NCBI GenBank assembly: GCA_964632865.1
Contig: CAZWDH010000001.1
Span: 10,106 to 74,105, forward strand
Direction of reading: 5' to 3'
DNA length: 64,000 bases
Origin: an uncultured Nitrospiraceae bacterium
GTDB lineage: Bacteria; Hydrogenedentota; Hydrogenedentia; Hydrogenedentales; SLHB01
Shown here: one piece after another, positions 40,075 to 64,000 of the stretch
How the letters are laid out: each line of letters starts with the position of its first letter
Position numbering within the stretch: the first letter of the stretch is position 1
The notes under the pieces: model-generated
The model's input: only the letters and a program-made list of their open reading frames with translations
What the model was told of the DNA's origin: nothing
The model's database searches: none
Program-made: the position numbers and the translations under genes

Positions 40075-40329
40075 ATGTGGACGATCGCGGAGGTCCTCGT
40101 TCAGTGTCCCCAGGCTGCGTTGGTGTTTACGCGGTTTCGGATGGCCTGCGTGGGTTGCCCGATGGCGGCGTTCGAGACGCTGGCCGAGGCGGCGCAAGCC
40201 TATGGCCTGGCTCCGGAGGCGGTGCTTCAGGAAATCCGCGGCGCGGTCACGGAGCGAATGTCGCAGCTTCAAGCTTCAAGTCGCGGCCCCGAGAGGCGCG
40301 CGGATCGGAGGCGCACTCATGACACGTAA
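40075..40329 (+). CDS. DUF1858 (hybrid-cluster-protein-associated redox disulfide) domain protein, overlapping the norB start by 11 nt.
   Basis: MWTIAEVLVQCPQAALVFTRFRMACVGCPMAAFETLAEAAQAYGL. Confidence 0.7.
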   Translation: MWTIAEVLVQCPQAALVFTRFRMACVGCPMAAFETLAEAAQAYGLAPEAVLQEIRGAVTERMSQLQASSRGPERRADRRRTHDT

Positions 40330-42619: not shown

Positions 42620-42665
42620 GTGAATCTCGATGCGATCGTCAGAAGGCGAATCCGGAGGAAGCACT

Positions 42666-44285: not shown

Positions 44286-44324
44286 CGTCCTGAGTACGCC
44301 CCGCAACGAAAGGAGTACGATGAA

Positions 44325-44777: not shown

Positions 44778-45373
44778 TCCGCGTCAAGCGCGTCTACAAT
44801 GAACCTGAAAGGCAGGACGGCATGCGCATCCTCGTCGACCGCCTGTGGCCGCGGTGGCTGAAGAAGGAGGCGGCGCGACTCGACGACTGGATGAAAGACG
44901 TTGCCCCAAGCGACGCACTCCGTCGCTGGTTCGGCCACGATCCAAAGCGTTGGGACGAGTTCCAGCGACGTTACCTCGCAGAGTTGGACGAGAAACCTGA
45001 AAGGTGGCGCACCCTGCTGGAGCGATCGCGCGTGGAGCCCATCACGCTCCTCTATGCGGCCAGTGACCCTGACTATAACAACGCCGTGGCGTTGAAACGC
45101 TATCTGGAGCGACGCGCCAAGAGGCGGCGGCCGACGACGCGCTCCGGCGAAAAGGCAGTCGCAAACCCGTCTATGCGAGCTGAATCGTCACATCGGCGGT
45201 CCCGGCATCGAGCGCCCTTTCGGACGCGTATTCACAGACGCATTCGTCCGAAAACGCCACGAGGCGTCCGTCCTTCCGCCGTTTCAGGGCCACCCAATCC
45301 TCACACGTTGCCTGCCAAGTCTCCCCGCCGATCAACTGAGCTATCGTCCACGCTCGGTGTTCATCCATCTTAG
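44774..45373 (+). CDS. DUF488 (YeaO-like) protein with an anomalous ~80-aa low-complexity C-terminal extension.
   Basis: MIRVKRVYNEPERQDGMRILVDRLWPRWLKKEAARLDDWMKDVAPSDALRRWFGHDPKRWDEFQRRY. Confidence 0.65.
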   Translation: MIRVKRVYNEPERQDGMRILVDRLWPRWLKKEAARLDDWMKDVAPSDALRRWFGHDPKRWDEFQRRYLAELDEKPERWRTLLERSRVEPITLLYAASDPDYNNAVALKRYLERRAKRRRPTTRSGEKAVANPSMRAESSHRRSRHRAPFRTRIHRRIRPKTPRGVRPSAVSGPPNPHTLPAKSPRRSTELSSTLGVHPS

Positions 45374-45434: not shown

Positions 45435-45860
45435 TCACGGCCCAGTCAGCCGCGCGCCCAGTTCTTGAATCTCACGTCCACCGATCACACCGTCATTCTC
45501 CCAATCCGCCCGGCCACAGGCCGGTTCCAATTCCCCGCCGGACAAGCCGAAGCAGTTCTGAAACGCAGCCACGTCGGTAAGGTCCTTGTCCCCGTCGTCG
45601 TCGAAGTCGGCGAAGAGGTCGGGAAACGCGTAGATACGCCGGTCGAAGTCTCCGGCGACAATTCCATCAGCCTCGACGAAATCCTCTGACTGAATGAACG
45701 CCGCCGGATCGAGAGGAGAGAAACCATCGCGGAAGTGGACTTCCAGCCGCCCGCCGAGCGTGGTCTGTCCGGTCACATGCAGCACGTCGAACTCGCCGGG
45801 GTTCTGTCCGGCATATTCCATGATCAAGGCGCCGCCGGGGAGTATCTCCAAATCTCCGTC
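45435..45860. repeat. Conserved 3' block of the paralog family (copy 1 of 3; the others are ~48335-48760 and ~51204-51630).
   Basis: Long stretches are near-identical at nucleotide level, e.g. ccggttccaattc(c/t)ccgccggaca(a/g)gccgaagcagttctgaaacgc.gccacgtcgg, between 45515 and 51290. Confidence 0.8.
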
Positions 45861-48287: not shown

Positions 48288-48334
48288 AAACCTCTCCCCT
48301 CTCTCGGGCGTGTCGCCTTTATGAACACGGCGGC

Positions 48335-51157
48335 TTACCGCGGTCCGCTGAGTCGGGCCGTCAGTTCGCGTACCTCTATTTCGTTGAGAACGCCGTTATC
48401 CTCCCAATCGGCTCGGGCACAAGCGAGTTCCAATGCCGCACCCGACAACCCGAAGCAATTTTGGAACGCGGCCACGTCAAAAAAGTCCTTGTCGCCGTCG
48501 TCGTCGAAGTCCGCGAAGATGTCGGGGAAGGCGTAGATGCGCTGGTCGTAGTCGCCCATGATGACCCCATCGGCCTCGACGAAATCTTGTGACTGAACGA
48601 ATGCCACCGGATCATCTGGCGAAAAGCCGTCGCGGAAGTGAATCTCCAACCGTCCGCCAAGCGTGGTTTGTCCCGTCACGTGCAAGACGTCGAATTCGCC
48701 GGGATTCAGTCCGGCATATTCGATCACGACCACTCCGCCGGGAAGGATGTCCAAATCACCGTCGATGGTGAGCGTGCCGGGTGAAAGACCCGGGGAGATG
48801 TACCCACCGGCCGAAACGTGCGGGACGGCCACCGTCCCCGTCCCGGTCAGGCTGCCGTTCTTATTGACCACGATGTTCCCGGTCCCGTCGATCAAAGCGT
48901 CCACGAGCGCGACGGCGCCACCGCCGGGACCGCCGCCGGGACTGCCGATGGTCATCGTGCCGTTGATCTCAAGTCTTCCGCTCGGATCGGCGAGCAGAAT
49001 CTCGCCCCGACCGGCGCCCATACCGACCTGCGCGTTCCCATACACCGTCAAATGCGAAAAGCCAGGATTCACCGAAACATTGGGAACGAACGATGCCACG
49101 ATGATTCCCGTCGCTCCGAACGTGTTGCCGCCCACGAGCAGGGTGTCGCAAGTAACGTGCGAGGGAAACATTCCCGGCTCATCGACAATGTTGAGCAGCC
49201 CGATCCCCGACGCCCCCACGGCGAGTGTCCCGTGGATCCATAGGTGCGATCCGGAGTTCAGGTTGACCGATCCGCTGGGATTGTCGCCGCCCAGCCCGAT
49301 CTTCAGATCCCCGTGGGTTTCCAGGAACGCGTCGTGGTCAAGCTGCACGATGCCCGGAGCGCCAATGCCGACCTGCGTTTCGCCGTTCACCGTCAGCCCT
49401 GTGGCCGGACCCGGAGGGTTGTTCAGCCCCGAAACCATCACAATCCCCTGCGCTCCCTCCCCCACGTGCAGTCCATTGTACAGTTCCGCTCGCGCCGCGG
49501 ACTGAAGGTTGAGCTGTCCCGGCACGACCTCGCCCACAAAAGTTCCTGCCCCCCCTCCGCCGGCAATTAATCCCACGGTCAGCGTGGGATAGTTCCCGAC
49601 GGGGCCCCGAAGCGTGACATCCGCCGTCCCAGGCCGAATCTGACTATTCCCGATGAAAAGCTCCTTGGTGCTGAACTCACCGCCGTTCTGAACGAGAACT
49701 TCCTGCAACTCCGTGGCGTTGACGAAGGTTCCCCTATGAACATCGAGGGCGGCGCCCCCGCCCTGACCGTCCACCACTACCTCCCCGCCGCCGGCGCCGG
49801 CGCCATAGCCGCCCACCACAAGGTCCGGGTTGATGTTGGCTTGTCCCCCGCGCATGATGTTAAGTCGCCCGCTCGCCCCGTCGCCGACAATCAGGGAGTA
49901 ATCTGCCACCTGAAAATATCCGGACGAGTCGACGTGGGAGTCATCGCCGCGGACCGTCACCGTGCCGGGGGCCGACTTGCCGATCCGCGGGGTCACGGTC
50001 ACCGGGGTCACGATCAGGGAGCCCTTGTCGAGTTCCACGGTTCCGGCGGTCGTGTCCCCCACGTAGAGCACGTCATTCACGTCGAACCTGGAACCAACGC
50101 CGGTCACGCGAACCGATGCCGCACCATTCCCCGAGCCGATAGTCAGGGATTTGGTAGAGCCCGTGCCGCCGTCCAGCACATCCAAAATTCCCCGCCCGAT
50201 CTTGGCGGACTCCGTGTTGGTCCAACGCCCTCCTTTGACTTCCAGCATGGAGTTCGTCGCCCCGCTTGCCCCGACGCTTGCGTGAACCGAATCCAGGGAG
50301 GCCCCGCTGGCCAGGCGGAGCTGCCCGCCAGTCCGAATAACTAGCGATGGGTTGGTCGCTGACGTCGAGAACACTTGCCCACTTCCGCTGAACGCGATCA
50401 GGCTGTTCTGCACGATCCACTGCCCAGCCGTTGCAAGGGGGCCCGCCGTCACCGGAATGTGGTTTGCTGTTGCCAATTGGAACATCGCTGAATCGCTCCG
50501 TTGGGTGTCATGGACCGGAGCGCAGTAACCTGAAAACGACGACGCCCAGTTGGTCGCATCTTCGTATGCGCCGCCGCTTGGGCTTGACCAGAACCGGTAT
50601 CCGCTGGACACGGTGGGAGTACAGGTAACTGTTTGCGTGCACGCAACCGCACCAGGAACAGTACGACCGCCAGCCCAGCAAAAGAAGGGAGTTCCGGGCC
50701 CCGTCGTAACCGTCTCGACGCCTTCGATTACAGTTTTACTAACAGTGTCGTACGTGCAGGCCACTTCACCGCCGACCCGTTGAAAGCTAATGTAGGCATT
50801 GCTCAAACCTGCACTCTGAAGGACACCCAGCGAGGGATTCACCGCGGCGCTCACCGTAATCGTGTATCCGGTCGGTGAAGTACTCACGCTGTAAGTCGTT
50901 TCCGGACCCGGGCAAGGCACGTATTCGTCATCCCCCAGGCACAGGTTGGGACACTCGGCCCCACCGGAATTGCTCAGCATGACCGGCCTTTCGTCGCAGT
51001 ACGGTAAAGGTGCAACACCAAAATCCCGGTGCGCCCAGATGAAAACCTCGAAACCGAAGTTCTCTACGTGTCCGTCGAGGCAATCCGCGCGGCCCCTGCC
51101 GGCGACAACAAGCAGCGTTAAGGCGACGAGACGCGCGTTTCGATTCCAAATCCTCAT
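48335..51157 (-). CDS. Large secreted protein, paralog 2, with the same architecture. The true start is probably Met 51157 (MRIWNRNARLVALTLLVVAG).
   Basis: Shares the N-terminal ADCLDGHxExF region, the PATR-like repeats and a nearly identical C-terminal ~140 aa with paralogs 1 and 3. Confidence 0.78.
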   Translation of the reverse strand: MRIWNRNARLVALTLLVVAGRGRADCLDGHVENFGFEVFIWAHRDFGVAPLPYCDERPVMLSNSGGAECPNLCLGDDEYVPCPGPETTYSVSTSPTGYTITVSAAVNPSLGVLQSAGLSNAYISFQRVGGEVACTYDTVSKTVIEGVETVTTGPGTPFFCWAGGRTVPGAVACTQTVTCTPTVSSGYRFWSSPSGGAYEDATNWASSFSGYCAPVHDTQRSDSAMFQLATANHIPVTAGPLATAGQWIVQNSLIAFSGSGQVFSTSATNPSLVIRTGGQLRLASGASLDSVHASVGASGATNSMLEVKGGRWTNTESAKIGRGILDVLDGGTGSTKSLTIGSGNGAASVRVTGVGSRFDVNDVLYVGDTTAGTVELDKGSLIVTPVTVTPRIGKSAPGTVTVRGDDSHVDSSGYFQVADYSLIVGDGASGRLNIMRGGQANINPDLVVGGYGAGAGGGEVVVDGQGGGAALDVHRGTFVNATELQEVLVQNGGEFSTKELFIGNSQIRPGTADVTLRGPVGNYPTLTVGLIAGGGGAGTFVGEVVPGQLNLQSAARAELYNGLHVGEGAQGIVMVSGLNNPPGPATGLTVNGETQVGIGAPGIVQLDHDAFLETHGDLKIGLGGDNPSGSVNLNSGSHLWIHGTLAVGASGIGLLNIVDEPGMFPSHVTCDTLLVGGNTFGATGIIVASFVPNVSVNPGFSHLTVYGNAQVGMGAGRGEILLADPSGRLEINGTMTIGSPGGGPGGGAVALVDALIDGTGNIVVNKNGSLTGTGTVAVPHVSAGGYISPGLSPGTLTIDGDLDILPGGVVVIEYAGLNPGEFDVLHVTGQTTLGGRLEIHFRDGFSPDDPVAFVQSQDFVEADGVIMGDYDQRIYAFPDIFADFDDDGDKDFFDVAAFQNCFGLSGAALELACARADWEDNGVLNEIEVRELTARLSGPR

Positions 51158-51203
51158 ACATTTCTCCTCGCTCCCGGACATGCCGCGCTATCCATTCGAC
51201 GGC

Positions 51204-54158
51204 TTATCGCGGTCCGCTGAGCCGGGCCGTCAGTTCGCGTACCTCTACCTCGTTGAGAACGCCGTTATCCTCCCAATCTGCGCGGCTACAAGCCGGTTCC
51301 AATTCTCCGCCGGACAGGCCGAAGCAGTTCTGAAACGCGGCCACGTCGGCGAGGTCTTTGTCCCCGTCGTCGTCGAAGTCGGCGAAGATATCCGGAAAGG
51401 CGTAGATGCGCTGGTCGTAGTCACCGGTGACAATCCCCTCCGACTCGACGAAATCCTGCGACTGAATGAACGCCGTCGGGTCATCCGGCGAAAAGCCGCC
51501 GCGGAAGTGAACTTCCAGCCGTCCGCCGAGGCTCGTTTGACCGGTGATGTGCAACACGTCGAACTCGCCGGGATTCGGGCCGTGATGCTCAAGGATCAGC
51601 ACCCCGCCGGGCAACAGTTCCAGGTCGCCGTCGATGTTAAGCGTTCTCAGCCCGCCCGGAGCGGCGACCGTAGATTGGGTTGCCCCCTGCAATCGCGACG
51701 GAGTCGATACGGAAATATTCGGACTGAGAGTGCCTTGGTTCACCAAGCCAAAAAACCCCACAGCAAGAGTGCCCGTGCCGGCGATCACGCCGTTGGGGGT
51801 GATGTACGTCCCGTCGGTCGCAACCAGGGCGTCGTTTTGCATATCCAACTGGCCGCTGCCGCCCCCGACTTGGCCCACCTGCAAGATTTCCAGGGCGCGC
51901 ACAAATCCACCGTCCACGGTGAGCGAACCGGTTCCGTTCGTGCCGGCCTGCCCCCCAATCTCGATGTTGCGGCAGCGTAGCAGGCCGCCTTCGTCAAGGG
52001 ACACGCCGCCATCAAACTCGCGACCAATGGCGCACAGACCGGCCTGCGGATCCACCACCTCCAAGAAAGTCGGATTCGAAGTAACCGCAGTGCCCCACAA
52101 GATCGCCGCGCCGACGCCCTCCTTGCCGATGATCAAATCGCCGTCGATGTCGCCCTTGGCCGCGTTCCAAAAGGCCAAGAGGTTGGCGCTGCCCGCGCCG
52201 CCGACGAACACGCTGCCCAGCACGTCCAGGTCTGAGGGGTCTCCGTTTGAATGGCGACCGTCGATGCGGAGTTCGCCATTCTTGATTTGAACGTTTTGGC
52301 TGACATACAGGTCGCCGCCATTCAGCACCTCTATGTAGCCAAAGCCGGTCTGCCCAATGGTCAAATTGCCCAAGAGCGCCCACAGGGATGCCTGACTAGT
52401 GCCCGCGCCGACGCCTTCAATCGTCACGTTCGAGTCTCCGCTGATGATGCCGAAGCTAACGAACGCATCGTTCGAGTTCACGCGCCCGCCGCTCTCGATG
52501 GTCAGGGTGCCGAGGGCGCCATAGCCCACGGCAATGTTGCCGGTGTCCCATAGCGAACCATCTCCGCCCACTACCGCTGTGCCGGGTGCCGTTGGCAGCA
52601 AGCCGCCCAGACGCGCCTCGGCGCTGGTCAGATGACCGCCATTGGCCACAAACAGGTCGCCCGCCCCTTCGTCGCCGATAGACAGCCGCCCCGTGCCGTT
52701 CAGACTGGTGCCGCTGTTGAACACCTGCAAATGGGCGATGGATGGATTTGTGGGTGGATCCCCGCCGATGATGGCGTGGATCATATTCCCCGCACCCGAA
52801 GTGATCTTGACCGTCCCCCCATCGTTGACGGTCAGCGCCGGTTCCGTCACCGAATCGTCCAGTAGATTCAAAGACAAATTGACGAAATCGACCGTGTTGG
52901 TGCCGGATATGATTGCTCGACGCACCGGAAAGGTGGCCGCCGGCGTGGCTGCGGTGAATGCGGCGCTGGCATCTACCGTGTATTGCCCACTCAGGGCAAA
53001 GACGACGGTATCGCCATCGCCGGGGTCGCCCTGCGGGTCCCAGTTCGTAGTCACGTGCCACGAGCCGCCGCTCGCGTTAATCCAGCGATACGCCTGTGGC
53101 TTGAGCAGGAAGGCACGACCCTGGCCGTTGAAATTCCCCTCACCGACGATCTGGCCCTTGCTATTGATGGCGTGCGCTTTAGTCAATTCCCAACCTGAAC
53201 CCGGCGGGATCAAGTTGTTGAGGTCCTGCATCTGGCCGTTCTCCCACAGGAAGGCGCGAAGCCGACCGGCGGGAGTGAGGATGTACGAGTGGCCGACTAC
53301 CTGGCCCTGGTCGTTGATGTCCAATGCAACGTTGAATATCTGCCCTCCCAGGGTGCCCAGGTCTTGCATGCCGCCGTTCTGCCACAAGAAGGGGCGTTGT
53401 GTGTCACCATTTATAAACGATTCTCCCACCACCTGGACGGCATTGTTAATCGCATACGCCTGACTGTTCGGACCTCCCAGGGTGCCCAGGTCTTGCATCG
53501 ATCCACCCTGCCACAGGAAGGCATAGAATGGCTCACGATGAACGCGCTCGGAATGGCCGACTACTTGGCCAGCGTCGTTGATGTCGGTAGCTAGGCTACT
53601 GTTCCCTCCCAGGGTGCCCAGGTCCTGCATCGAGCCGTTCTGCCACAAGAAGGCGCGCATCTGCTGTGTGCTGTTGAGTGACCAACCCGCTACTTGCCCG
53701 GAACTATTTACCCCATATGCCTCGCCGCTATTACCGCCGAACGTGCCCAGGTCTTGCATGTCGCCGTTCTGCCACAAGAAGGGGCGTCCCCCTCCGCTGC
53801 TGGTAAGTGCCATCCCAACAATTTGGCCGGCATCGTTGATATCGTTTGCCCGACTCATTTGCCCACCCAGCGTTCCCAGGTCGGTCATCACCCCGTCTTC
53901 CCACAGAAAAGCATGGGTATTTCCGCCGGAAGTGGCTGACCAGCCGACCACCTGACCCTCGTCGTTAATACCGTAGGCTCCGCTGGACGACCCTCCCAGC
54001 GTGCCCAGGTCGGTGATGGCGTAGCGCGGACCGGCAGGCGGGTTAGCCTGGAGTGCCGTTTGCCCGTTTGTCGCCAAGGGAGATGCTCCCAGTTGCGCTA
54101 CGCCAAACAGGGATAGCAACAGTGCAATCAACGCGACCGAAAAAAGTGATTGTTTCAT
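51204..54158 (-). CDS. Large secreted protein, paralog 3: eight or more N-terminal HAF-family extracellular repeats, then PATR-like repeats and the dockerin-like C-terminus.
   Basis: Repeats D(L/M)GTLGG..S.A..IN..GQVVG.S.....HAFLW..G.MQDLGTLGG; signal peptide MKQSLFSVALIALLLSLFGVAQLGA. Confidence 0.8.
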   Translation of the reverse strand: MKQSLFSVALIALLLSLFGVAQLGASPLATNGQTALQANPPAGPRYAITDLGTLGGSSSGAYGINDEGQVVGWSATSGGNTHAFLWEDGVMTDLGTLGGQMSRANDINDAGQIVGMALTSSGGGRPFLWQNGDMQDLGTFGGNSGEAYGVNSSGQVAGWSLNSTQQMRAFLWQNGSMQDLGTLGGNSSLATDINDAGQVVGHSERVHREPFYAFLWQGGSMQDLGTLGGPNSQAYAINNAVQVVGESFINGDTQRPFLWQNGGMQDLGTLGGQIFNVALDINDQGQVVGHSYILTPAGRLRAFLWENGQMQDLNNLIPPGSGWELTKAHAINSKGQIVGEGNFNGQGRAFLLKPQAYRWINASGGSWHVTTNWDPQGDPGDGDTVVFALSGQYTVDASAAFTAATPAATFPVRRAIISGTNTVDFVNLSLNLLDDSVTEPALTVNDGGTVKITSGAGNMIHAIIGGDPPTNPSIAHLQVFNSGTSLNGTGRLSIGDEGAGDLFVANGGHLTSAEARLGGLLPTAPGTAVVGGDGSLWDTGNIAVGYGALGTLTIESGGRVNSNDAFVSFGIISGDSNVTIEGVGAGTSQASLWALLGNLTIGQTGFGYIEVLNGGDLYVSQNVQIKNGELRIDGRHSNGDPSDLDVLGSVFVGGAGSANLLAFWNAAKGDIDGDLIIGKEGVGAAILWGTAVTSNPTFLEVVDPQAGLCAIGREFDGGVSLDEGGLLRCRNIEIGGQAGTNGTGSLTVDGGFVRALEILQVGQVGGGSGQLDMQNDALVATDGTYITPNGVIAGTGTLAVGFFGLVNQGTLSPNISVSTPSRLQGATQSTVAAPGGLRTLNIDGDLELLPGGVLILEHHGPNPGEFDVLHITGQTSLGGRLEVHFRGGFSPDDPTAFIQSQDFVESEGIVTGDYDQRIYAFPDIFADFDDDGDKDLADVAAFQNCFGLSGGELEPACSRADWEDNGVLNEVEVRELTARLSGPR

Positions 54159-54918: not shown

Positions 54919-55023
54919 TTGTGGCTTCGGTCGGCGGCAAAGAGCGGGGCCGCACCTCGGGGGACGAGTCATGGTCTCGTTCCGTACGAGTTCGCTTGTA
55001 GTTTGGCGTTTACGAATGGAGAA

Positions 55024-56379
55024 ATGGCCATGAGAACACGGTGGTTTCCGCCTTCCGTCGGTTGCGTGCTGGCGTTGTTTGTGACCGGGTGCCCGGAAAT
55101 CCTACCCGGAACGGAGGACTCCGTTGTCGATGAGTCACTGCGAGCGGTTCTGGACGACGCCGCCGTAACACCCGTAACCAAACCGACGGTGGACGCTCCA
55201 AAGGTCAAGCTCGGGCAGATGTTGATGTTCGACAAGATCCTGAGCGGGAATCGCAACATATCCTGCGCTACCTGTCACCATCCGGCGGTCGGCACCGGCG
55301 ATGGCTTGTCGCTTTCCAAAGGACAAGGAGGCGTCGGACTCGCGCAGTCGCGATCGACGCCGCTGGGTGCAGATGGACAACCGATATTGATTCCGCGGAA
55401 TGCGCCGGACGTTTTCAACCGCGGCGATTTTGACACAATGTTCTGGGACGGCCGCGTTCATCGCAACGACGACGGATCGTTTACGACGCCGGCCGGTGAG
55501 CAGCTCCCCCCCGGATTAGACAGCGCTCTCGCGGCCCAGGCCATGTTTCCGGTTACGTCGCGCGAGGAAATGCGCGGCCACGTTGGTGAAAACGAACTGG
55601 CCGACCTGCCCGACGACGACCTGCCCGGCATTTGGGTCGGTCTGATGGCTCGTCTGCTGGCGATTGAAGAGTACCGCGACTTATTTGACGCGGCCTATCC
55701 CGGAACGGTCGAGTCCGTCTTGACCTTTGCGCACGCAGCCAACGCCATCGCTGCCTTTGAGGTGGATCACTGGACTCTGGATGACAGCCCCTTCGATCAT
55801 TACCTGCGCGGCGACGACTCCGCCATGTCTAGTTCGTCCAAGCGCGGGGCGCTGTTGTTCTACGGTGAGGCCGGCTGCGCGACTTGTCACTCCGGTCCGC
55901 TGCTGACGGATCAGGAGTTCCACGCCGTCAGCGTTCCGCAGCTTGGCCCCGGAAAAGGCCACGGCGACGACGGGCTTTCCGACTTTGGGCGTGAGGCGGT
56001 CTCCGGCGATGCGAGCGATCGTTACAAATTCCGGACTCCGTCGCTGCGCAACGTCGCGGCCACGGGACCCTGGATGCACGACGGCGCTTTTACAGACTTG
56101 GAAGCAACCGTGCGCCACATGCTCGATCCCATCACTGCGGCATCCGCGTATGATCAAACACAGCTCGCGCCGGAATTTCGCGCCTTGTACCACGCGGAGC
56201 AGACCCCGGCGATCGTGGCCGCGATTGACTCCGATGAACTGTCTGCGGTGACTTTGACGGACGAAGAGGTCGCGGACTTGATGGCGTTCCTGCACGCGTT
56301 GACTTCACCATCCGCGGCCTCGTTGCCGATGGTGGACATTCCCGACCGCGTGCCCAGCGGCCTGCCGCTGGCGGATTGA
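55024..56379 (+). CDS. Di-haem cytochrome c peroxidase (CCP/MauG family), probably a lipoprotein.
   Basis: Two CxxCH motifs (CATCHHP, CATCHSG), the conserved PSLRNV and WMHDGAF, and a signal peptide with VTGC. Confidence 0.88.
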   Translation: MAMRTRWFPPSVGCVLALFVTGCPEILPGTEDSVVDESLRAVLDDAAVTPVTKPTVDAPKVKLGQMLMFDKILSGNRNISCATCHHPAVGTGDGLSLSKGQGGVGLAQSRSTPLGADGQPILIPRNAPDVFNRGDFDTMFWDGRVHRNDDGSFTTPAGEQLPPGLDSALAAQAMFPVTSREEMRGHVGENELADLPDDDLPGIWVGLMARLLAIEEYRDLFDAAYPGTVESVLTFAHAANAIAAFEVDHWTLDDSPFDHYLRGDDSAMSSSSKRGALLFYGEAGCATCHSGPLLTDQEFHAVSVPQLGPGKGHGDDGLSDFGREAVSGDASDRYKFRTPSLRNVAATGPWMHDGAFTDLEATVRHMLDPITAASAYDQTQLAPEFRALYHAEQTPAIVAAIDSDELSAVTLTDEEVADLMAFLHALTSPSAASLPMVDIPDRVPSGLPLAD

Positions 56380-56437
56380 GAACAGTCACTGGATGTACGG
56401 TCAAACAAGGCGACACGGCTATCAGGAGGTCTGAACA

Positions 56438-58435
56438 ATGTCCACGGCGACTCCGTTCTTCCGACGGCATGCAGCTGCACTGGTGGCGACCGTGCTGGTT
56501 GCGAGCTGTTACGCATTCACCCGCCTTCCCGCACCGTCTGCTGCGGAGCGAGCCGCGCTGGCAGTTCGATTCCGGTTCACGCGGTCGGCGCTCCCTGAGT
56601 TGATCACGTCGTCGCAGAAATCCGTTCGGACGGTTCATCCAAGTTTGACCCGGATATCCTCATGGATATCCGCAACCGGCGCCGCTGCCGCTCTTGAAGA
56701 CCTCGATGGGGATGGACTTCCCAACGACCTATCCTGGGTCGATCCACGAGTCGACGAGGTAATCATTACGCCGGTTCCGGAAACCGGTCAGCGCTTCCAG
56801 CCATTCGTTTTGAACCCGGCTCCTCTTCCCTATGACCCGGGCACGATGGCGCCGATGGGCAGCATGACCGCGGATCTAAACGAAGATGGCCTCATGGACA
56901 TTCTTGCATATTACTGGGGGCGCACTCCGGTTGCGTTCTTGAGAAAGGGAGTTTCTCCCGAGATCGCAGGAGCGGCGACCTCAGGGGGTCTGTCGGCAAC
57001 GGCGTTCGTTCCATGTGAAGTCGCCTCTAGCATTCAGCGTTGGTACACCAGCAGTGCCACCCTCGCCGACCTCGATGGCGATGGACATGTCGATATCGTG
57101 ATCGGCAACTACTTCCAGGACGGCGCTCGCATTCTCGATGCAAAAGCCTCCGGGGTCGAAATGATGCACGATACCAAGTCGAAGTCCTTTAATGGCGGCT
57201 GGAACAGGTTACTGCTTTGGAAGGCAGCAACGGCGGGCGGAGCACCCAGCGTGCAGTTTACCGACGTGGAGGACGTATTGGACGAGGATGTCGCTCGTGC
57301 ATGGACGCTCGCCGTCGGCGCGGCCGATATCGATGGCGACCTGCTCCCGGAAATCTACTTTGCTAATGATTTCGGTCCCGATCGTCTCCTCCACAATCGT
57401 TCGACCCCCGGCAGCCTTCGTTTTGGCGTACTGGAGGGAAAAGGCACGCTCGGCACTCCAGCTTCATTCGTCTTAGGTCATGACTCGTTCAAGGGTATGG
57501 GAGTGGATTTTGGAGATGTAAACGGGGATGGGTTCCTCGATATTTATGTAAGCAACATCGCCAGGGAGTTCGGATTGCAGGAAAGTCACTTCTTGTGGCT
57601 GTGTACGGGCGAGTTTGACAAGATGAAAGATGGCGCCGCGCCCTACGTGCAGGCAAGCGAATCCCTGGGGTTGTCCCGGAGTGGATGGGGATGGGAATCG
57701 CGACTAGCGGACTTCGATAATGATGGGACCTTGGAAGCGATTCAGGCCGTGGGCTTCATCAAGGGCCAGAACAATCGCTGGGCTGCATTGCAGTCGCTGG
57801 TTACGGCCAATGATCAAATGATGCACAATCCCAAGCTTTGGCCCCGGTTTCAACCGGGCGACGATCTCAGCGGTTACGATCCCAACGCCTTCTTTGTTCG
57901 GGCCAGCGACGGGCGCTACGTCGATGTCGCAAGTGAAATCGATCTTGACCAACCGATGGTAAGTCGCGGCATCGCCGTCGCCGACGTGGACGCAGATGGT
58001 GACCTGGACTTCGCACTCGCCAACCAATGGGAACAATCCTATTTCTATCGCAATGATAGCCCCCAGCAGAACGCGTTTCTTGCAATGCGGCTTTTGCTGC
58101 CGCTCGGAAGCCAAAAGCTCCCTGCTGTGACCGTTTACCGGGGGCGTCGCGGACCTGACTTGGAGGGACGCGCGGCTATCGGCGCCGTAGCGACGGTGCA
58201 CCTTCCCGACGGCCGACGCCTTGTCGGTCATGTTGACGGCGGAAACGGACATTCAGGCAAGCGAAGCCAAGATTTGCATTTTGGGCTCGGTCAACTGGCA
58301 GATGAGGCAGAGCTTCAAGTGGATCTGCGCTGGCGTGACGCTGACGGTCGCGATCACCGTGAAACGGTGCACGTGAAGCCCGGATGGCAGACCATTCAAC
58401 TCGGATGTCAGCACAGCGGAGGAGAAACATCATGA
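56438..58435 (+). CDS. FG-GAP/VCBS-repeat protein with a C-terminal ASPIC/UnbV domain (CRTAC1-like).
   Basis: Repeated DLDGDGxxD Ca-binding loops (ADLDGDGHVDIV, ADIDGDLLPE, DVNGDGFLDIY, DVDADGDLDF). C-terminal GNGHSGKRSQDLHFGLG. Confidence 0.8.
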   Translation: MSTATPFFRRHAAALVATVLVASCYAFTRLPAPSAAERAALAVRFRFTRSALPELITSSQKSVRTVHPSLTRISSWISATGAAAALEDLDGDGLPNDLSWVDPRVDEVIITPVPETGQRFQPFVLNPAPLPYDPGTMAPMGSMTADLNEDGLMDILAYYWGRTPVAFLRKGVSPEIAGAATSGGLSATAFVPCEVASSIQRWYTSSATLADLDGDGHVDIVIGNYFQDGARILDAKASGVEMMHDTKSKSFNGGWNRLLLWKAATAGGAPSVQFTDVEDVLDEDVARAWTLAVGAADIDGDLLPEIYFANDFGPDRLLHNRSTPGSLRFGVLEGKGTLGTPASFVLGHDSFKGMGVDFGDVNGDGFLDIYVSNIAREFGLQESHFLWLCTGEFDKMKDGAAPYVQASESLGLSRSGWGWESRLADFDNDGTLEAIQAVGFIKGQNNRWAALQSLVTANDQMMHNPKLWPRFQPGDDLSGYDPNAFFVRASDGRYVDVASEIDLDQPMVSRGIAVADVDADGDLDFALANQWEQSYFYRNDSPQQNAFLAMRLLLPLGSQKLPAVTVYRGRRGPDLEGRAAIGAVATVHLPDGRRLVGHVDGGNGHSGKRSQDLHFGLGQLADEAELQVDLRWRDADGRDHRETVHVKPGWQTIQLGCQHSGGETS

Positions 58436-59379
58436 AATCAGCGGAAACCGTCACGGCGTTTTATTTTTACCCTAAACAAAGCGAACGTCTTCGTCTGTTC
58501 GCGCTCTGGTATTTTGCTTCCCTGCTGACGCTGGGGACGATCGTCGGGCACACGGTTTTGGGTTTCGAACAATCCTGGGCAGTTCCACTCGTGGGTGTGG
58601 GAACCGCCTGTGCCATGCAACTCCTACTCGAATGGCTGGACGCTCGCGCCAAGAATCGCCCGCTGCGCTACAACGGAGGCCTTTTCGCCTTTATCAACTT
58701 CCTTTTGCCGGCATATATTCCGGGACAGGCGATTGCCATATTGCTGTACCCCAATGAACGCCTTATGCCAATCGTGTTCGCGGCGGTGCTCATGATTGGC
58801 TCCAAAGTGATGTTTCGCGCACCGATGGGCGAGGGCCGGACGCAGCATTTCCTCAATCCATCGAACTTTGGCATCGCGGTCACTCTTTTGCTGTTTCCAT
58901 GGGTAGGTCTGGCTCCGCCTTACCACTTCACGGAAAACATCGCCGGCGCGTGGGATTGGATTGTGCCGGGTATCGTCCTCCTTTCCGGGCTCATCATTCA
59001 CGCTTTTTTCACGGGTCGACTTCCTGTGCTGGCGGCATGGCTCATTGGCTTTGCGGCGCAGGCGCTCTTGAGGAGCTGGCTCTTCGGGAGTCCGGCGCTG
59101 ACGATGCTGGTGCCGATGACCAGCGTGGCCTTCATCCTGTTTACCATGTACATGATCCCCGACCCCGCCACGATTCCTTTAGATCCAATCCGGCAGGCGG
59201 CATTCGGTTTTGCGGTGGCGGCTGTCTATGGATTGCTTCAGGAGCTGCACATTGTGTTTGGTCTATTTCTGGCCCTTGTCATCGTTTGTGCACTCCGTGG
59301 TGCTGGGTTGTACTGGGCCGCCTTTTTGAGGCAGCGTAGCGTATCGTTTGGGCTTCATCCGGCGGCCCGCGCTGCCTGA
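58432..59379 (+). CDS. Polytopic membrane protein of unknown function; its start overlaps the upstream stop (ATGA).
   Basis: ~8 predicted TM helices; no motif recognised. Confidence 0.55.
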   Translation: MKSAETVTAFYFYPKQSERLRLFALWYFASLLTLGTIVGHTVLGFEQSWAVPLVGVGTACAMQLLLEWLDARAKNRPLRYNGGLFAFINFLLPAYIPGQAIAILLYPNERLMPIVFAAVLMIGSKVMFRAPMGEGRTQHFLNPSNFGIAVTLLLFPWVGLAPPYHFTENIAGAWDWIVPGIVLLSGLIIHAFFTGRLPVLAAWLIGFAAQALLRSWLFGSPALTMLVPMTSVAFILFTMYMIPDPATIPLDPIRQAAFGFAVAAVYGLLQELHIVFGLFLALVIVCALRGAGLYWAAFLRQRSVSFGLHPAARAA

Positions 59380-59473: not shown

Positions 59474-59965
59474 ATGACAGGCAGCCAACTGATCGGCGAC
59501 GCGGAGAATTTGAATTCGATGCCGAGCCCAGATGCCGCCGCATTGGAACAGTGCGTCACATTCCCGACCGGACAACTGACACAGAGTCAGCTCCGGGCGG
59601 TGTTTGGATCGCTCCCGCTCGAACTTACGTTCGTGGATCACGAAGATCGCGTTCGGTACTTCACCAAGAGCGACGAACCGATTTTTGCACGGTCCGCAGC
59701 CGTGCTAGGGAGAAAAGTGCAGGATTGTCATCCGCCCAAGAGCGTGAGCATCGTCAATCGCATTCTCTCGGACTTCCGGTCCGGACGCGAAAACGCTGCC
59801 TGCTTTTGGCTCGAATTGAGGGGTCGATTCGTACATGTCGAGTACCTGGCCGTTCGCAATACGGAAGGCCAGTACATCGGCACGCTCGAGGTCGTGCAGG
59901 ATATAACGCCGCTGCGTGCCTTGCAAGGCGAACGCCGGCTCTTGGAGTATGAGACCGCATCGTGA
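59474..59965 (+). CDS. PAS-domain protein.
   Basis: LTFVDHEDRVRYFT...FWLELRGRFVHVEYLAVRNTEGQYIGTLEVVQDIT is PAS-fold-like. Confidence 0.55.
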   Translation: MTGSQLIGDAENLNSMPSPDAAALEQCVTFPTGQLTQSQLRAVFGSLPLELTFVDHEDRVRYFTKSDEPIFARSAAVLGRKVQDCHPPKSVSIVNRILSDFRSGRENAACFWLELRGRFVHVEYLAVRNTEGQYIGTLEVVQDITPLRALQGERRLLEYETAS

Positions 59966-60116
59966 GTGGCCCGACAATCTGCCGAACAATGGCAAAGGAA
60001 AGGAGCAGCATGTACAGCAGGCGATTCAGGATACTTCCCCTAGGCTTGGCGACGTGTCGGTTTTTAGGGCGGTGCCCTCGTGCGCGGCGGAGGTTCCGTG
60101 AAAAGGAGAAAGGGTT

Positions 60117-62366
60117 ATGAAGGCTAAATGGTTGTTGAGTATTTCGATGGTTGTCGCGCTGACAGGCGGACTCGCGGTCCACGCGGCGGATATCGGCACG
60201 GGCTTTAGCTATCAGGGGTTCCTCGAAAAACCTGCCGGAACTCCGGTGGACGGCGTTTCGTGCGACTTCCGCTTCGGGCTCTGGGACGCGGCCGCGGGGG
60301 GGAATCAACAAGGGGTTTCGCCGCAAACGAAAATCGGCGTTGCGGTGACCGGTGGAGTGTTCACCGTGCCCGACTTGGATTTCGGCGCAGGGGCCATCGA
60401 CGGCGCCGCGCGGTGGCTGGAGATCGAGGTCCAGTGCCCGCCGGACGCGGGGTTCACGTTGCTTTCGCCGCGCGTGGAGCTGACTCCCGCGCCGCACGCC
60501 ATTCGGGCGTGGGAAGGCGTCGGGCCGCCCAACGCGTTGGAAGTGGACACGGCGACGGGCTTCGTGGGCATCGGGACGGACTCGCCGGTCTACCCGTTGC
60601 ACTCCTCCACGGCCGGCCCGTCTGACCGCGCGGTTTACGGCGAGGCCACCGCCGCTACCGGTACCACCTACGGCGTGTTCGGCCGGAGCGTCAGCCCGGA
60701 CGGGGCCGGCGTTCGCGGCGACTCCGTCGCCATCAGTGGGACCGCCTATGGCGGTCGCTTCCAGACCGGGAGCCCGGACGGCCGCGCCGTCTACGGCGAG
60801 GCCATCGCCGCCGGCGGCACCGCCTACGGTGTATTCGGCCGGAGCAACAGCACGTCCGGTCGTGGCGTGTACGGCGAGGCCACTGCCGGTACCGGCAGCA
60901 CTTATGGCGGTTGGTTCCAAAGCCTTAGCGCGGACGGGGCCGGCGTCTTTGGCAGCTCCGGCGCCATCAGTGGGACCGCCTACGGCGGTCGCTTCCAGAC
61001 CGGGAGCCCGGACGGGCGCGCCGTCTACGGCGAGGCCATCGCCGGTACGGGCACCGCCTACGGCGTGTACGGCCGGAGCGACAGCACGGACGGGCGTGGC
61101 GTCTACGGCGAGGCCACCGCCGCTACTGGCGGCACCTATGGCGGTTCCTTCCGGAGCGACAGCACCGAGGGGCGCGCCGTCCAGGGTTGGGCTACTGCCG
61201 CCAGCGGCAACACCATCGGCGGTCGTTTCACGAGTGACAGCACAGCCGGATACGGCGTCTGGGCCGATGCCGATGCCAGTACCGGCACCACCTACGGCGT
61301 GGTTGGCCGGAGCGCCAGCACGGACGGGTACGGCGTGTTCGGGTATGCGAGCGCGGCGAACGGGACGACCCGCGGCGGCTACTTTAAGAGCCAGAGCACG
61401 GACGGATTCGGCGTCTACGGTTTGGCCACCGCCATTACGGGCACCAACTACGGCGTGTACGGCCGGAGCGACAGCACCGAGGGGCGCGCCGTCCAGGGTT
61501 GGGCTACTGCCGCCAGCGGCAACACCATCGGCGGTCGTTTCACGAGTGACAGCACATCCGGGTACGGCGTCTGGGCCGATGCCGATGCCAGTACCGGCAC
61601 CACCTACGGCGTGGTCGGCCGGTGCAATAGCCCGGACGGGTTCGCTGGCTACTTCACCGGTCCAGCCGGGAGCAGAAACTACTTCGCACAAAGCGTGGGC
61701 ATAGGAACCAATGCGCCCGACGTCACTCTCCACGTCGAGGACGGTGCCGACGCCTCGTTGAGCAGTGGGTCCGGCTACCTCGTCCTGGGACCGGTCTCCG
61801 GTTCGAATCTCGTCCTCGACAACAACGAGATCCTCGCCCGCAACAACGGCGCCGGGGCGAGCCTCTTCATCAACTACGAAGGCGGAAACGTGGGGATCCT
61901 ACGGAACTCCGCGTCGCACCCGCTGCATGTGGGCAACGACAGCAGCACCGGTAACGGCGCCCATCTCACCGCCGGCGGAATCTGGACCAACGGCAGCGAT
62001 CGGAACTCCAAGGAAAACTTCAAACCGTTCGACGCGGGGGCCATCCTGGAAAAAGTAGCGGAACTGCCGCTAACTGTTTGGAATTACATCGGAGAGACCG
62101 ACGGCGTGCATCACATCGGCCCCATGGCCCAGGACTTCCACGCGGCGTTCGGCTTGGGCCACGACGAGCGCTACATCACCACCATCGACGCCGACGGTGT
62201 GGCTCTCGCCGCAATCCAAGGCCTCTACCAGATCGTGCAGGAAAAGGACTGCGAGATCGAAGAGTTGAAGGCGAAGGCGGAATCCGTCGAACGGCTCGAG
62301 GAGAAGGTTGCGGCGCTGGAGGCGTTGGTGCACAAGCTCGCCGCCCAGAACGGAGGTGGGCGATGA
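60117..62366 (+). CDS. Secreted tail-fibre-like protein: signal peptide, ~14 Gly-rich ~40-aa beta-solenoid-like repeats, and a C-terminal peptidase-S74 intramolecular-chaperone auto-processing domain.
   Basis: MKAKWLLSISMVVALTGGLAVHA. Repeats GRAVYGEATA.TGT.YGV.GRS.S.DG.GV.G. C-terminal SDRNSKENFKPFDAGAILEKVAELPLTVWNYIGETDGVHHIGPMAQDFHAAFGLG...IDADGVALAAIQGL, then a coiled coil. Confidence 0.8.
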   Translation: MKAKWLLSISMVVALTGGLAVHAADIGTGFSYQGFLEKPAGTPVDGVSCDFRFGLWDAAAGGNQQGVSPQTKIGVAVTGGVFTVPDLDFGAGAIDGAARWLEIEVQCPPDAGFTLLSPRVELTPAPHAIRAWEGVGPPNALEVDTATGFVGIGTDSPVYPLHSSTAGPSDRAVYGEATAATGTTYGVFGRSVSPDGAGVRGDSVAISGTAYGGRFQTGSPDGRAVYGEAIAAGGTAYGVFGRSNSTSGRGVYGEATAGTGSTYGGWFQSLSADGAGVFGSSGAISGTAYGGRFQTGSPDGRAVYGEAIAGTGTAYGVYGRSDSTDGRGVYGEATAATGGTYGGSFRSDSTEGRAVQGWATAASGNTIGGRFTSDSTAGYGVWADADASTGTTYGVVGRSASTDGYGVFGYASAANGTTRGGYFKSQSTDGFGVYGLATAITGTNYGVYGRSDSTEGRAVQGWATAASGNTIGGRFTSDSTSGYGVWADADASTGTTYGVVGRCNSPDGFAGYFTGPAGSRNYFAQSVGIGTNAPDVTLHVEDGADASLSSGSGYLVLGPVSGSNLVLDNNEILARNNGAGASLFINYEGGNVGILRNSASHPLHVGNDSSTGNGAHLTAGGIWTNGSDRNSKENFKPFDAGAILEKVAELPLTVWNYIGETDGVHHIGPMAQDFHAAFGLGHDERYITTIDADGVALAAIQGLYQIVQEKDCEIEELKAKAESVERLEEKVAALEALVHKLAAQNGGGR
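61171..61650. repeat. Internal tandem duplication (~318-bp unit, 61171-61330 and 61489-61650) inside the Gly-rich repeat gene.
   Basis: gcgccgtccagggttgggctactgccgccagcggcaacaccatcggcggtcgtttcacgagtgacagcaca... occurs twice, nearly identical. Confidence 0.8.
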
Positions 62367-62728
62367 ACCGGCACGCCGAACATCGAGAGCAGAATGCTTC
62401 AGAATGGGAACCTCCAGCAAACGCGGGCGGTCGGGTCTGGTTCAAGTGCGAGCAGGCTTCTGAATTGGCAATTGGAAATCGACGCTTCGCAGTTCCCTTT
62501 GCTCTTCGTTGTTCAACGTTCGTCATTCTATGGGCGGTCGCCACGGCGAACGCTCAGAGTGGTGGCGCGTATGTCATCAGGAAGAGTACGATGGATTCCG
62601 GTGGTGACCGAGTCGTCGGCGGCGAATTCGTGCTGACCGGCACCGTGGGACAACCCGACGCCGCCGAGCTGACCGGCAGTGGGTACACGCTCGCAGGCGG
62701 GTTCTGGTCGCCGGCCGACGCCGCCTAG
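62363..62728 (+). pseudogene. Small secreted protein whose IPTL-CTERM sorting anchor is separated from it by an in-frame amber codon (TAG 62726-62728).
   Basis: Signal-like FAVPFALRCSTFVILWAVATANAQ, then ...GYTLAGGFWSPADAA-TAG-LIPAVSEWGIAVLMLLVTIAATLVLSTRAV... (IPTL-CTERM consensus IPTLSEWG plus TM plus basic residues). The start overlaps the upstream stop (ATGA). Confidence 0.55.
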
Positions 62729-62866
62729 CTGATCCCGGCGGTTTCCGAGTGGGGAATCGCGGTACTGATGCTGTTGGTCACCATCGCTGCGACATTGGTC
62801 TTGTCGACGCGCGCGGTCGGATCGGTTTTTGCGGCTGGGGATCACGGAAACGCGAAAAAGCAGTGA
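62729..62866 (+). other. Detached IPTL-CTERM-like sorting domain coding segment (46 codons), in frame immediately after the amber stop.
   Basis: LIPAVSEWGIAVLMLLVTIAATLVLSTRAVGSVFAAGDHGNAKKQ-stop. Confidence 0.55.
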
Positions 62867-63264
62867 ACAGGAATTGCAGCCCGTCGGTGTCCTTCGGGCT
62901 GAGCACCGGGTCATTCTTCGCGTGGTCATGGCTCTGGAAAGGCTGATGGACCGCTTCGAGCAGACGGGAGAATTCGGCGAGTCAGGCGTTCCACCACTAG
63001 TCAATCTTCGCGGAAAAGCACTTGCGATGCGTCGGATCTCGTCCTCGAAGCCGACTTGCACCCGTAGAACAATGGGCGAGAACACAGGTACAAAGAAGGA
63101 AGAAGTTCTTGGGCACACTCTCCATGAACCAACCGTTGCTCCTTTGATGTCGGCGAGCGATGACGATGCGGTGCGACTGCAGTCAAGGCGACCGATCTCG
63201 CTACGGACGATCCACTGGCCACGAGGTTACGCGCGAGGCATCAGCACCGCATGAATCGCTAGGA

Positions 63265-64000
63265 GTTTGCTGAAATGAAATCACCCCTCACCTTAAGAGC
63301 CAGTGGACTGCCGCTTCCCGTGGCTCCATCCCAACCGACACACCCATTGCGTTCGCGCGCCCGTGTCTTGCTTACCAGCGTGTTCGGACCCTATGCCCAG
63401 GACGACGAGTACGGCAGCCGGAAAATCACGTCCATGGAGCTGTGGCACAACCAGGTCACGCGCGTACAGGGGCCGTTTTCATTGCGCATGTCGCACCGTT
63501 CCTGGGGGCTCATGCTGATCCAGGCCAACATCCTCGCTCCATGTACGCTTCTGGATTTCCCAGACATGCAGCGCTTCATAGACCAGATCACAACGAATGA
63601 ATACGACATCATCGGGATCAGTTCGATCATCCCCAACGTCCGGAAAGTGCGCAAGATGTGCGAACTCATTCGCGAACACGCACCGGCAACGACGATTGTC
63701 ATCGGCGGACACATCGCCAACCTGGCGGAACTGGACGAACTGATCGACGCCGACCACATCGTCAAGGGCGAGGGAGTCCGCTGGATGCGCCGCTTCCTTG
63801 GCGAGGACGAGAGCCGCGCGATCAGACACCCGCGAATCCTGTCGGGGATAGGCTCGCGCATCCTGGGGATCACTCAGTCGGTCAAACCCGGCGAGGTCGC
63901 CGCCACACTGATTCCTTCGGTGGGCTGTCCCGTGGGATGCAACTTCTGTTCGACGTCAGCCATGTTCGGCGGCAAGGGCAGCTGCGTGAATTTCTACGAA
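63265..64000 (+). CDS. B12-binding-domain radical SAM protein (N-terminal cobalamin-binding domain, then CxxxCxxC); 3' end outside the window.
   Basis: IIGISSIIPNVRKVRKMCELIREHAPATTIVIGGHIANL (B12-binding fold), then SVGCPVGCNFCST. AGGAG RBS at 63251. Confidence 0.78.

Follow-up and report, generated by a model that had tools for sequence, protein, structure and literature searches.

A probable recent nonsense mutation separates an IPTL-CTERM-type sorting signal from a small secreted protein encoded beside a Peptidase_S74 fibre gene

How did a tail resembling a C-terminal sorting signal come to lie in frame, but untranslated, just beyond the stop codon of a small secreted protein? The question arises near the end of the window, the 64-kb stretch of DNA that we analysed. 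The original prediction described a 121-aa protein ending ...GGFWSPADAA, followed by TAG and a continuation in the same frame, and it offered three explanations: a recent nonsense mutation, a single-base sequencing error, or regulated stop-codon read-through. Both the coordinates and the sequence proved correct. The sense codons of the open reading frame at 62363-62728 close with ...GGFWSPADAA and TAG comes next; the frame then continues for 45 sense codons, LIPAVSEWGIAVLMLLVTIAATLVLSTRAVGSVFAAGDHGNAKKQ, and is closed by TGA at 62864-62866. A product identical to these 121 residues (P0001) was found in NCBI and in Logan. The features of the locus are as follows.

60117-62366, + strand: upstream fibre-like gene, 749 aa, secreted; Gly-rich repeats, then a Peptidase_S74 domain (intramolecular chaperone) at the C-terminus
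62352-62356, + strand: Shine-Dalgarno sequence GGAGG, 6 nt 5' of the small-gene ATG and within the end of the fibre gene (read from the sequence)
62363-62728, + strand: small gene in its present form (121 codons, then TAG)
62480-62554, + strand: signal peptide region RRFAVPFALRCSTFVILWAVATANA, up to the cleavage-type site shared across the family, A-x-A before Q (family alignment)
62555-62707, + strand: core domain QSGGAY...GTVGQPDAA...YTLAGGFW, about 51 aa, with all family-invariant residues intact
62726-62728, + strand: in-frame amber codon TAG, a Glu position in orthologues (codon alignments)
62729-62866, + strand: stranded tail of 45 sense codons closed by TGA; homologue of the IPTL-CTERM tails in the orthologues P0002 and P0121
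62732-62755, + strand: signature motif IPAVSEWG (family consensus IPT[LV]SEWG)
62753-62812, + strand: predicted transmembrane helix GIAVLMLLVTIAATLVLST (read from the sequence; aligns to the transmembrane segment of P0002)

The upstream neighbour had been called an S74 fibre gene, and its product indeed scores 43.4 bits against PF13884, with a cutoff of 22. The motif SDRNSKEN starts at residue 627 and fits the SDxxxKxN pattern expected at the start of the domain, where autoproteolysis is predicted, and the N-terminus of the fibre protein (MKAKWLLSISMVVALTGGLAVHA) is signal-peptide-like. The overlap of the two genes is likewise real: the start codon of the small gene (62363) and the stop codon of the 749-aa gene share bases in the sequence ATGA, and the surrounding GCGATGA junction is identical in three loci, namely the window and the syntenic loci L002 and L090. 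Orthologous S74 genes lie upstream in both of these, the order of S74 fibre gene and then small gene is the same in L002/L003 and L090 as in the window, and a B12/radical-SAM gene follows downstream in L090 and in the window. A hemerythrin-like pseudogene considered for the 408-bp gap (141-aa ORF at 62829-63254) was dismissed, having no Pfam support, and a TBLASTN search of the same gap with the 120-aa gene of L090 found nothing.

The small protein belongs to a family that has no Pfam or NCBIfam model and yet numbers 5,249 or more clusters at 50% identity, counted as cluster representatives matching P0002 at E<=1e-3. Its members, found in Planctomycetota, Chloroflexota, Verrucomicrobiota, Armatimonadota and other phyla, are small and secreted and share a conserved Gly-rich core of about 50 aa, to which interchangeable C-terminal localisation modules are joined (IPTL-CTERM, dockerin-like, T9SS tail and Ig-like types). 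The window protein carries the family signature, a signal peptide ending in A-x-A before Q followed by the invariant G-T-x-G-Q-x-D ... G-G-F-W, with G93, T94, G96, Q97, D99, G112, G113, F114 and W115 all kept. Alignment A1 of the family shows A64 and Q65 to be almost invariant and preceded by a hydrophobic h-region; the signal peptide is probably cleaved after A64. An AlphaFold2 monomer model, built on a 120-sequence alignment, gives a confident helix at residues 43-62, but with a pLDDT of 64 (about 58 in the core) it is too poor for a fold search. Translational coupling to secreted Peptidase_S74 fibre proteins is frequent in the family; the pairing occurs at 12 of 77 genome loci, plus the three syntenic loci. 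The gene pair could be an uncharacterised cell-surface fibre system.

Is the stranded tail a sorting signal? It had been assigned to the IPTL-CTERM type, and the motif, the transmembrane helix and the homology to P0002 and P0121 bear this out, whereas its scores fall below both family cutoffs and its basic cluster is weak. Taken alone, the tail scores 18.7 bits (E 1.6e-3) against TIGR04174, just under the curated cutoff of 20.5, and 18.8 bits against PF18203, just under that of 20.8. P0002 passes both models (PF18203, 32 bits; TIGR04174, 21.6 bits, or 26.8 for its tail by itself), so the window tail is best regarded as a near-threshold homologue of bona fide IPTL-CTERM members. Of the tripartite layout, the motif (within LIPAVSEWG) and a hydrophobic stretch of 19 residues are present, but only a single Arg comes after the helix; about 17 residues follow the helix, and positions 21-27 of the TIGR04174 HMM, which represent the basic cluster, are unmatched. 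The IPAVSEWG variant also occurs in two intact family members, P0157 and P0190. Judged from its sequence, then, the tail appears to be a genuine IPTL-CTERM-type sorting signal and not a chance match. It differs from those of P0002 and P0121 in that theirs form the C-terminus of the translated protein, while in the window TAG lies between.

The original prediction took it that IPTL-CTERM signals are recognised by exosortase/archaeosortase-type systems, which is an assumption. The machinery that might read such a signal was sought nearby. No exosortase or archaeosortase domain was present among about 45 ORFs scanned in the 64-kb window, and no further SEWG-type tail was found in any of its six frames. 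Our literature search turned up no paper linking IPTL-CTERM to an exosortase or naming a cognate sorting enzyme. Against NF033207 (midcut-by-XrtH) the tail scores 23.7 bits with a cutoff of 45, and only model positions 37-71 of 175 are aligned. Similarity to the 'CPR-type pilus protein PamT' (12-18.6 bits, cutoff 240) was checked against the preprint and judged not meaningful.

The orthologues in L002 (P0002) and L090 (P0121) speak most directly to the origin of the stop. Both have uninterrupted tails consisting of IPTVSEWG, a transmembrane segment and R, with which the window tail can be aligned codon by codon, the distance from GGFW being 8 codons in each case (phmmer of P0002 against P0001 gives E = 2e-23). 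Comparison of orthologues for a sense codon at the stop, a check named in the original prediction, finds Glu in both, GAG in L090 and GAA in L002. Across the site the window reads GCC TAG CTG ATC CCG, L090 reads ACA GAG CTG ATT CCG, and L002 reads TCG GAA CCG ATT CCA. Set against the GAG CTG of L090, the TAG CTG of the window is explained by one G->T change at 62726. No other family member shows a stop followed by a tail in some 85 loci, among which the 6-aa stretch after GGFW in the window is the shortest seen. Two proteins that end soon after the core, P0123 and P0137, were considered as further examples and set aside; they are truncated by ISAzo13-type IS insertions.

The tail beyond the stop still looks like coding sequence. 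Its GC3 is 0.73 in its own frame and 0.58 and 0.49 in the other two. Over the motif and transmembrane stretch, the window and P0002 share 15 of 27 residues (56%), with 10 synonymous differences; this identity about equals that of the whole protein (54-60%), so decay has not been accelerated. In the same stretch pN is 0.30 and pS 0.64, against 0.25 and 0.77 in the core, while in the linker and the post-helix stretch pN and pS are both about 0.77. These substitution patterns indicate that the tail was under purifying selection in the past, and the constraint on its motif and transmembrane part, like that on the core, suggests that the mutation is recent. With just two IPTL-tailed orthologues in the collections, 54-60% identical, the mutation can be dated only against a deep split; a scan of JGI metagenomes for more gave just the L002 contig, already known, and L089, whose tail is dockerin-like.

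We next consider the stop codon itself and its surroundings, for which the sequence of the window genome comprised the 64 kb and a further 7 kb in L001. TAG closes 11 of the 39 confident ORFs in the window (28%), including genes of 805, 551 and 473 aa; as a normal terminator, the codon is not reassigned. The window contains no tRNA genes. The RNA at and beyond the stop folds no more stably than shuffled sequences (z = 0.25), and terminator-like sites near the tail number four against 2.8 in shuffles, which is no excess.

A recent nonsense mutation, the first of the three explanations originally offered, is strongly favoured by the Glu codons of both orthologues, and we hold it to be probable that such a mutation turned an anchored protein into a released 57-aa form. 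This would be an ordinary truncation involving no new recoding mechanism. The open tail does not by itself decide the matter: a tail without frameshift or second stop, and coding-like, is predicted by a recent mutation and also by continued read-through. Functional read-through would have UAG partly suppressed, through a leaky UAG-C context or a suppressor tRNA, so that one message yields a major released form of about 57 aa and a minor membrane-anchored form open to processing by a sorting enzyme. The downstream frame is open for exactly one complete sorting signal and keeps its coding-like GC3, and the stop is followed by C, which after UAG is reportedly the weakest termination context in E. 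coli. Yet the stop is not conserved in the two orthologues, a stop followed by a tail is not seen again in some 85 family loci, the same codon terminates more than a quarter of the confident genes of the window, no tRNA gene lies in the window, and no unusually stable RNA structure surrounds the stop. Special cases apart, bacteria are not known to use programmed read-through of this sort. The regulated read-through originally proposed finds no support here, and we give the leaky-codon alternative only the slightest chance. Were it true, read-through would set the surface-retained share of an S74-fibre-associated protein, and the locus would show, in a bacterium, a C-terminal sorting signal governed by stop-codon read-through.

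Could the TAG be an artefact or a minority allele, the majority gene having GAG at 62726-62728 and encoding an intact 167-aa IPTL-CTERM protein? The DNA evidently comes from a metagenome-assembled genome, in which consensus bases can mirror strain mixtures; the tail is without any sign of decay; and G->T changes are a known class of oxidative-damage artefact in library preparation. A second assembly (Logan SRR14787579), made with a different assembler, nevertheless reproduces the TAG, with flanks 100% identical over 2,415 bp, although both assemblies probably go back to one sample. At normal Illumina coverage a consensus seldom carries a single-base substitution error, and among 5.8 billion proteins there was no intact near-identical variant, the only match above 60% identity being the truncated P0001. 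The single-base sequencing error of the original prediction is therefore unlikely as the cause of the TAG, and the broader possibility of an artefact or minority allele seems to us improbable, if less so than read-through. A different proposal accepts the nonsense mutation and is a sub-case of it, differing only in selective interpretation: the loss of the anchor was selected since releasing the protein, perhaps with its fibre, from the cell surface was advantageous. Family members differ in their C-terminal modules or lack them, and most have no membrane anchor; close relatives show independent C-terminal disruptions by IS elements; the core is intact with all invariant residues kept; and a parallel is offered by surface proteins of other bacteria that have premature-stop variants. 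Against this, the event occurs once, and drift of a neutral or slightly deleterious allele, in a population that was small or had passed through a bottleneck, would account for it just as well. We regard adaptive loss as doubtful, though better placed than either the artefact or the read-through explanation.

Under the nonsense-mutation explanation, the ancestral precursor would have been a protein of about 167 aa with a Sec signal peptide, a 'GGFW' core of about 51 aa, a short linker and an IPTL-CTERM-type tripartite signal. That signal, composed of the IPAVSEWG motif, the transmembrane helix and a basic residue, would have kept the precursor in the membrane, and it probably marked it for processing or attachment at the cell surface. 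In the lineage of the window, assigned to the Phycisphaerales (Phycisphaerae, Planctomycetota), a single G->T at 62726 would then have turned the GAG (Glu) of the linker into TAG. Translation would now end six residues past the core, so that the exported product, its signal peptide cleaved, would be released as a soluble peptide of about 57 aa lacking an anchor, and the 45 downstream codons would be a very young untranslated remnant. Given the intact core, and since a membrane anchor is missing from most of the family, the truncated protein may still be functional in its released form. The small gene presumably remains translationally coupled, through the ATGA overlap and the Shine-Dalgarno sequence, to the S74-matured fibre protein. 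The 121-aa annotation is accordingly correct as translated, and the gene would be a truncated derivative of one for an IPTL-CTERM protein. Truncation of an anchor signal is in itself a routine evolutionary event; the locus gives a natural 'anchor-less' allele for study of the small protein.

Several known systems invite comparison. The signal logic of short motif, transmembrane helix and basic residues is that of the PEP-CTERM/exosortase system (PMC1569441) and of 'midcut-by-XrtH' proteins (NF033207); unlike PEP-CTERM proteins, the window tail has no PEP motif, and its 64-kb surroundings have no exosortase gene. The IPTL-CTERM proteins (TIGR04174/PF18203), exemplified by the S-layer protein mela_00855 of Methylomirabilis lanthanidiphila (PMC8671808), resemble the ancestral form in having an IPT[LV]SEWG-type motif, a hydrophobic helix, basic residues and an N-terminal signal peptide. 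They differ in that the signal of the window lies outside the translated protein and that its helix is followed by about 17 residues and not by a short Arg cluster.

With phage endosialidase and tail-fibre Peptidase_S74 proteins the locus shares a bona fide S74 domain and a coupled small downstream gene. In contrast to those phage systems, both window proteins have signal peptides and the context is cellular and non-phage; the small partner, moreover, comes from an unannotated family with surface-anchoring modules and is no known fibre-assembly chaperone. Truncated forms of Listeria monocytogenes InlA lose their LPXTG anchor and are secreted. The window differs from that example in its signal (IPTL-type as against LPXTG and sortase A), its phylum and its protein family, and in being a single occurrence, but in outline the two are alike: a nonsense mutation 5' of the sorting signal would convert an anchored protein to a released one and leave the N-terminal functional domain intact.

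The small gene begins at an ATG (62363) that shares the nucleotides ATGA with the TGA of the upstream 749-aa S74 fibre gene, 6 nt downstream of a GGAGG Shine-Dalgarno sequence. Its ORF has 121 codons, ending ...GGFWSPADAA before a TAG; the frame past the TAG stays open for 45 codons, reading LIPAVSEWGIAVLMLLVTIAATLVLSTRAVGSVFAAGDHGNAKKQ, until a TGA. This ORF layout confirms the original observation of an in-frame amber codon that cuts the sorting signal off a 121-aa protein. Across all six frames, the window has no second SEWG-type tail.

Features of the cassette
60117-62366, + strand: S74 fibre gene (Peptidase_S74 domain)
62363-62728, + strand: small gene
62555-62707, + strand: Gly-rich core of the small gene
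62726-62728, + strand: TAG stop
62729-62866, + strand: stranded tail, closed by TGA at 62864-62866
62867-63274: 408-bp gap
from 63275: B12-binding radical-SAM gene

Word-indexed searching with the read-through sequence as query yielded P0001, the identical 121-aa product (in NCBI and Logan), and P0002, a 137-aa orthologue (60% identical) that is uninterrupted through ...GGFWNERQPSEPIPTVSEWGLAVLALTLAAAATIIFAQRHCDGQECGAESG and lies above both curated thresholds (32 bits to PF18203, 21.6 bits to TIGR04174). An exhaustive HMMER search with P0002 as query found a further orthologue, P0121 (129 aa, 68% identical to P0002), which reads ...GGFWNEPRLTELIPTVSEWG... Both P0002 and P0121 are encoded at loci syntenic with the window. 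At the P0002 locus (L002/L003) the S74 fibre gene has ~74% DNA identity to that of the window over its C-terminal part and shares 4 nt with the small gene. At the P0121 locus (L090) the order is S74 fibre gene (553 aa), small gene (4-nt overlap), a 120-aa gene and a B12/radical-SAM gene. The window follows this order, with a 408-bp gap separating the stranded tail from the B12/radical-SAM gene where L090 has its 120-aa gene; the 141-aa ORF in this gap (62829-63254) has no family match and no similarity to the 120-aa gene, and the gap may reflect a deletion or replacement in the window lineage. The junction GCGATGA is identical at all three loci (window, L002 and L090); the originally noted overlap with the fibre gene stop is real.

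Judged by its sequence, the tail is an IPTL-CTERM-type signal, as originally proposed, though it falls slightly below the curated thresholds. TIGR04174 scores the tail alone at 18.7 bits (E 1.6e-3; cutoff 20.5) and PF18203 at 18.8 bits (cutoff 20.8), and the sorting-signal segment of NF033207 ('midcut-by-XrtH') matches it partially at 23.7 bits (cutoff 45). Of its three parts, the IPAVSEWG motif and a hydrophobic helix of 19 residues stand out clearly; the third, the basic cluster, is weak and consists of a single Arg. P0157 and P0190, intact members of the same family, have precisely this IPAVSEWG variant. The ~45 window ORFs scanned gave no exosortase, archaeosortase or rhombosortase domain, and other secreted proteins of the window carry a dockerin/EF-hand-like C-terminal module in place of the IPTL type. 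IPTL-CTERM is mentioned in a paper on a Methylomirabilis S-layer protein (PMC8671808); we found no paper tying IPTL to exosortase, so any identity given to the sorting enzyme is an assumption only.

The position of the TAG is occupied by Glu in both relatives, and at all three loci GGFW and the IP motif lie 8 codons apart. To account for the stop, one G->T substitution at 62726 (GAG->TAG) suffices.

Codon alignment across the stop position
Window: GCC TAG CTG ATC CCG GCG GTT (A * L I P A V)
L090: ACA GAG CTG ATT CCG ACA GTG (T E L I P T V)
L002: TCG GAA CCG ATT CCA ACA GTG (S E P I P T V)

Nei-Gojobori counts, window vs L002
Core: pN 0.25, pS 0.77
Tail motif and TM: pN 0.30, pS 0.64
Linker and post-TM stretch: pN ~0.77, pS ~0.77

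Between the window and L002, the motif and TM stretch share 15 of 27 residues, 10 of these 15 through different synonymous codons. Tail identity (56%) is close to that of the whole protein (54-60%), so extra decay is not detectable, and GC3 of the tail is 0.73 in frame vs 0.58 and 0.49 in the other two frames. Together, pN/pS, identity and GC3 point to protein-level selection on the sorting signal during nearly all the time since the lineages diverged, and to a young stop.

We therefore strongly favor a recent nonsense mutation, the first of the explanations originally offered, given the Glu codon in the orthologues and a tail under selection until recently; within this reading we cannot separate neutral from selected loss of the anchor. 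That the TAG arose by sequencing or consensus error is unlikely: the TAG is also present in a Logan assembly of SRR14787579 (L001) with 100% identity to window 61586-64000. This second assembly counts against an assembler artefact, although its reads probably come from the same sample as the window. Functional read-through, which had been suggested to give anchored and released forms, we consider very improbable. Its appeal lies in the tail remaining open and in frame, yet no other member among ~85 family loci (genomes and metagenomes) combines a stop with an in-frame sorting tail; the RNA fold of 62700-62940 shows no excess stability over shuffles (z = 0.25), and the window contains no tRNA genes. 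All other members among these loci have an intact C-terminal module, and the 6-residue post-GGFW stretch of the window is the shortest. Reassignment of TAG is ruled out, since 11 of 39 confident window ORFs end in TAG, including genes of 805, 551 and 473 aa. Under the favored nonsense mutation the truncated protein would likely still be exported, because its signal peptide and core are intact, and would then be set free instead of being tethered to the membrane or processed.

Several other features of the window deserve mention. Its glutamate dehydrogenase has its best named relatives (85-86% identical) in Phycisphaerales MAGs. The dockerin/EF-hand-like module (IYAFPDxFADFDDDGDKDL...FQNCFGLSG...ADWE) is common to three tandem ~950-aa paralogues that are almost without Pfam matches (DUF3466 in one, a T5SS/PEP-CTERM-associated repeat in another); in L090 it forms the stand-alone 120-aa gene right after the small IPTL gene. 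The ParB cluster suggests that the contig contains, or lies next to, a plasmid or an integrated element of conjugative or mobile type. The radical-SAM neighbor of the fibre cassette is kept in L090, and an overlapping 331-aa polytopic membrane protein in the cassette flank has no family match.

Other features
1029-6804: ParB (590 aa), DUF932 and ParA/MinD-type ATPase cluster
40202-45373: nitrosative-stress-like cluster, with long NorB with cytochrome c-like domain (805 aa), methyltransferase-ScdA-hemerythrin fusion (551 aa), PNPOx-like and DUF488
45435-54158, - strand: ~950-aa paralogues
54919-59379 and 63275-64000: cassette flanks, with di-haem cytochrome c peroxidase/MauG-like, FG-GAP + UnbV_ASPIC (one protein), PAS_10 and B12-binding radical-SAM proteins
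L090 3208-3570: stand-alone dockerin/EF-hand-like gene

The secreted family of the small protein, here termed GGFW, has no Pfam or NCBIfam model. HMMER with P0002 found at least 5249 50%-identity cluster representatives (E <= 1e-3), and in GTDB species genomes 476 of the first 600 pattern matches were confirmed. The proteins combine a signal peptide that ends in A-x-A|Q, a ~51-aa core (QSGGxY...GTxGQPDAG...YxLxGGFW; invariant G93, T94, G96, Q97, D99 and G112-W115) and a variable C-terminal module. They span at least six phyla, with taxa including Phycisphaerae, Pirellulales, Chloroflexota, Verrucomicrobiota, Armatimonadota, Binatia and Methylomirabilota. Modelled by AF2 as a monomer, the core is predicted with low confidence; it may need oligomerisation or a partner to fold.

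C-terminal modules by Pfam, 150 cluster representatives nearest P0002
IPTL-CTERM: 15/150
Dockerin: 5/150
FlgD-Ig: 2/150
T9SS tail: 1/150

Other members end in a domain of ~65 aa that closes with FYRLRKP, in IFADGFE, in a short YLPLVLR tail or in a ~250-aa domain. Three close relatives also stop soon after the core: P0129, whose end is overlapped by a convergent gene, and P0123 and P0137, cut by ISAzo13-type transposase insertions. The IS-disrupted relatives, truncated within or just past the core, are independent losses of the C-terminal module by another mechanism.

IS-disrupted relatives, ISAzo13-type (DDE_Tnp_ISAZ013)
L091/L092: gene 217-561, transposase 920-1810
L093: gene 142-531

At 12 of 77 genome loci a secreted S74-type fibre gene immediately precedes the GGFW gene on the same strand, and at 4 more an S74-type gene lies within the flank; the pairing is seen at the three syntenic loci as well. 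Sites are window 60117-62728, L002, L090, L010, L019, L026, L031, L033, L035, L041, L050, L054, L068, L073 and L083. S74 proteins are rare in genomes, so the association is strong, and the pair may be an uncharacterised surface-fibre cassette. The window fibre gene has internal ~312-nt repeats (60650-61610), BLAST self-matches (60656-60704, 61041-61094, 61274-61332) and near-identical antisense ORFs (61136-61291, 61448-61603); a 659-aa antisense ORF (59754-61733) is probably an artefact of GC-rich repeat composition.

The unannotated GGFW family and its S74 pairing are a more interesting by-product than the truncation. Loss of a sorting signal by premature stop is a well-known type of event, and the window case is a further instance of it.
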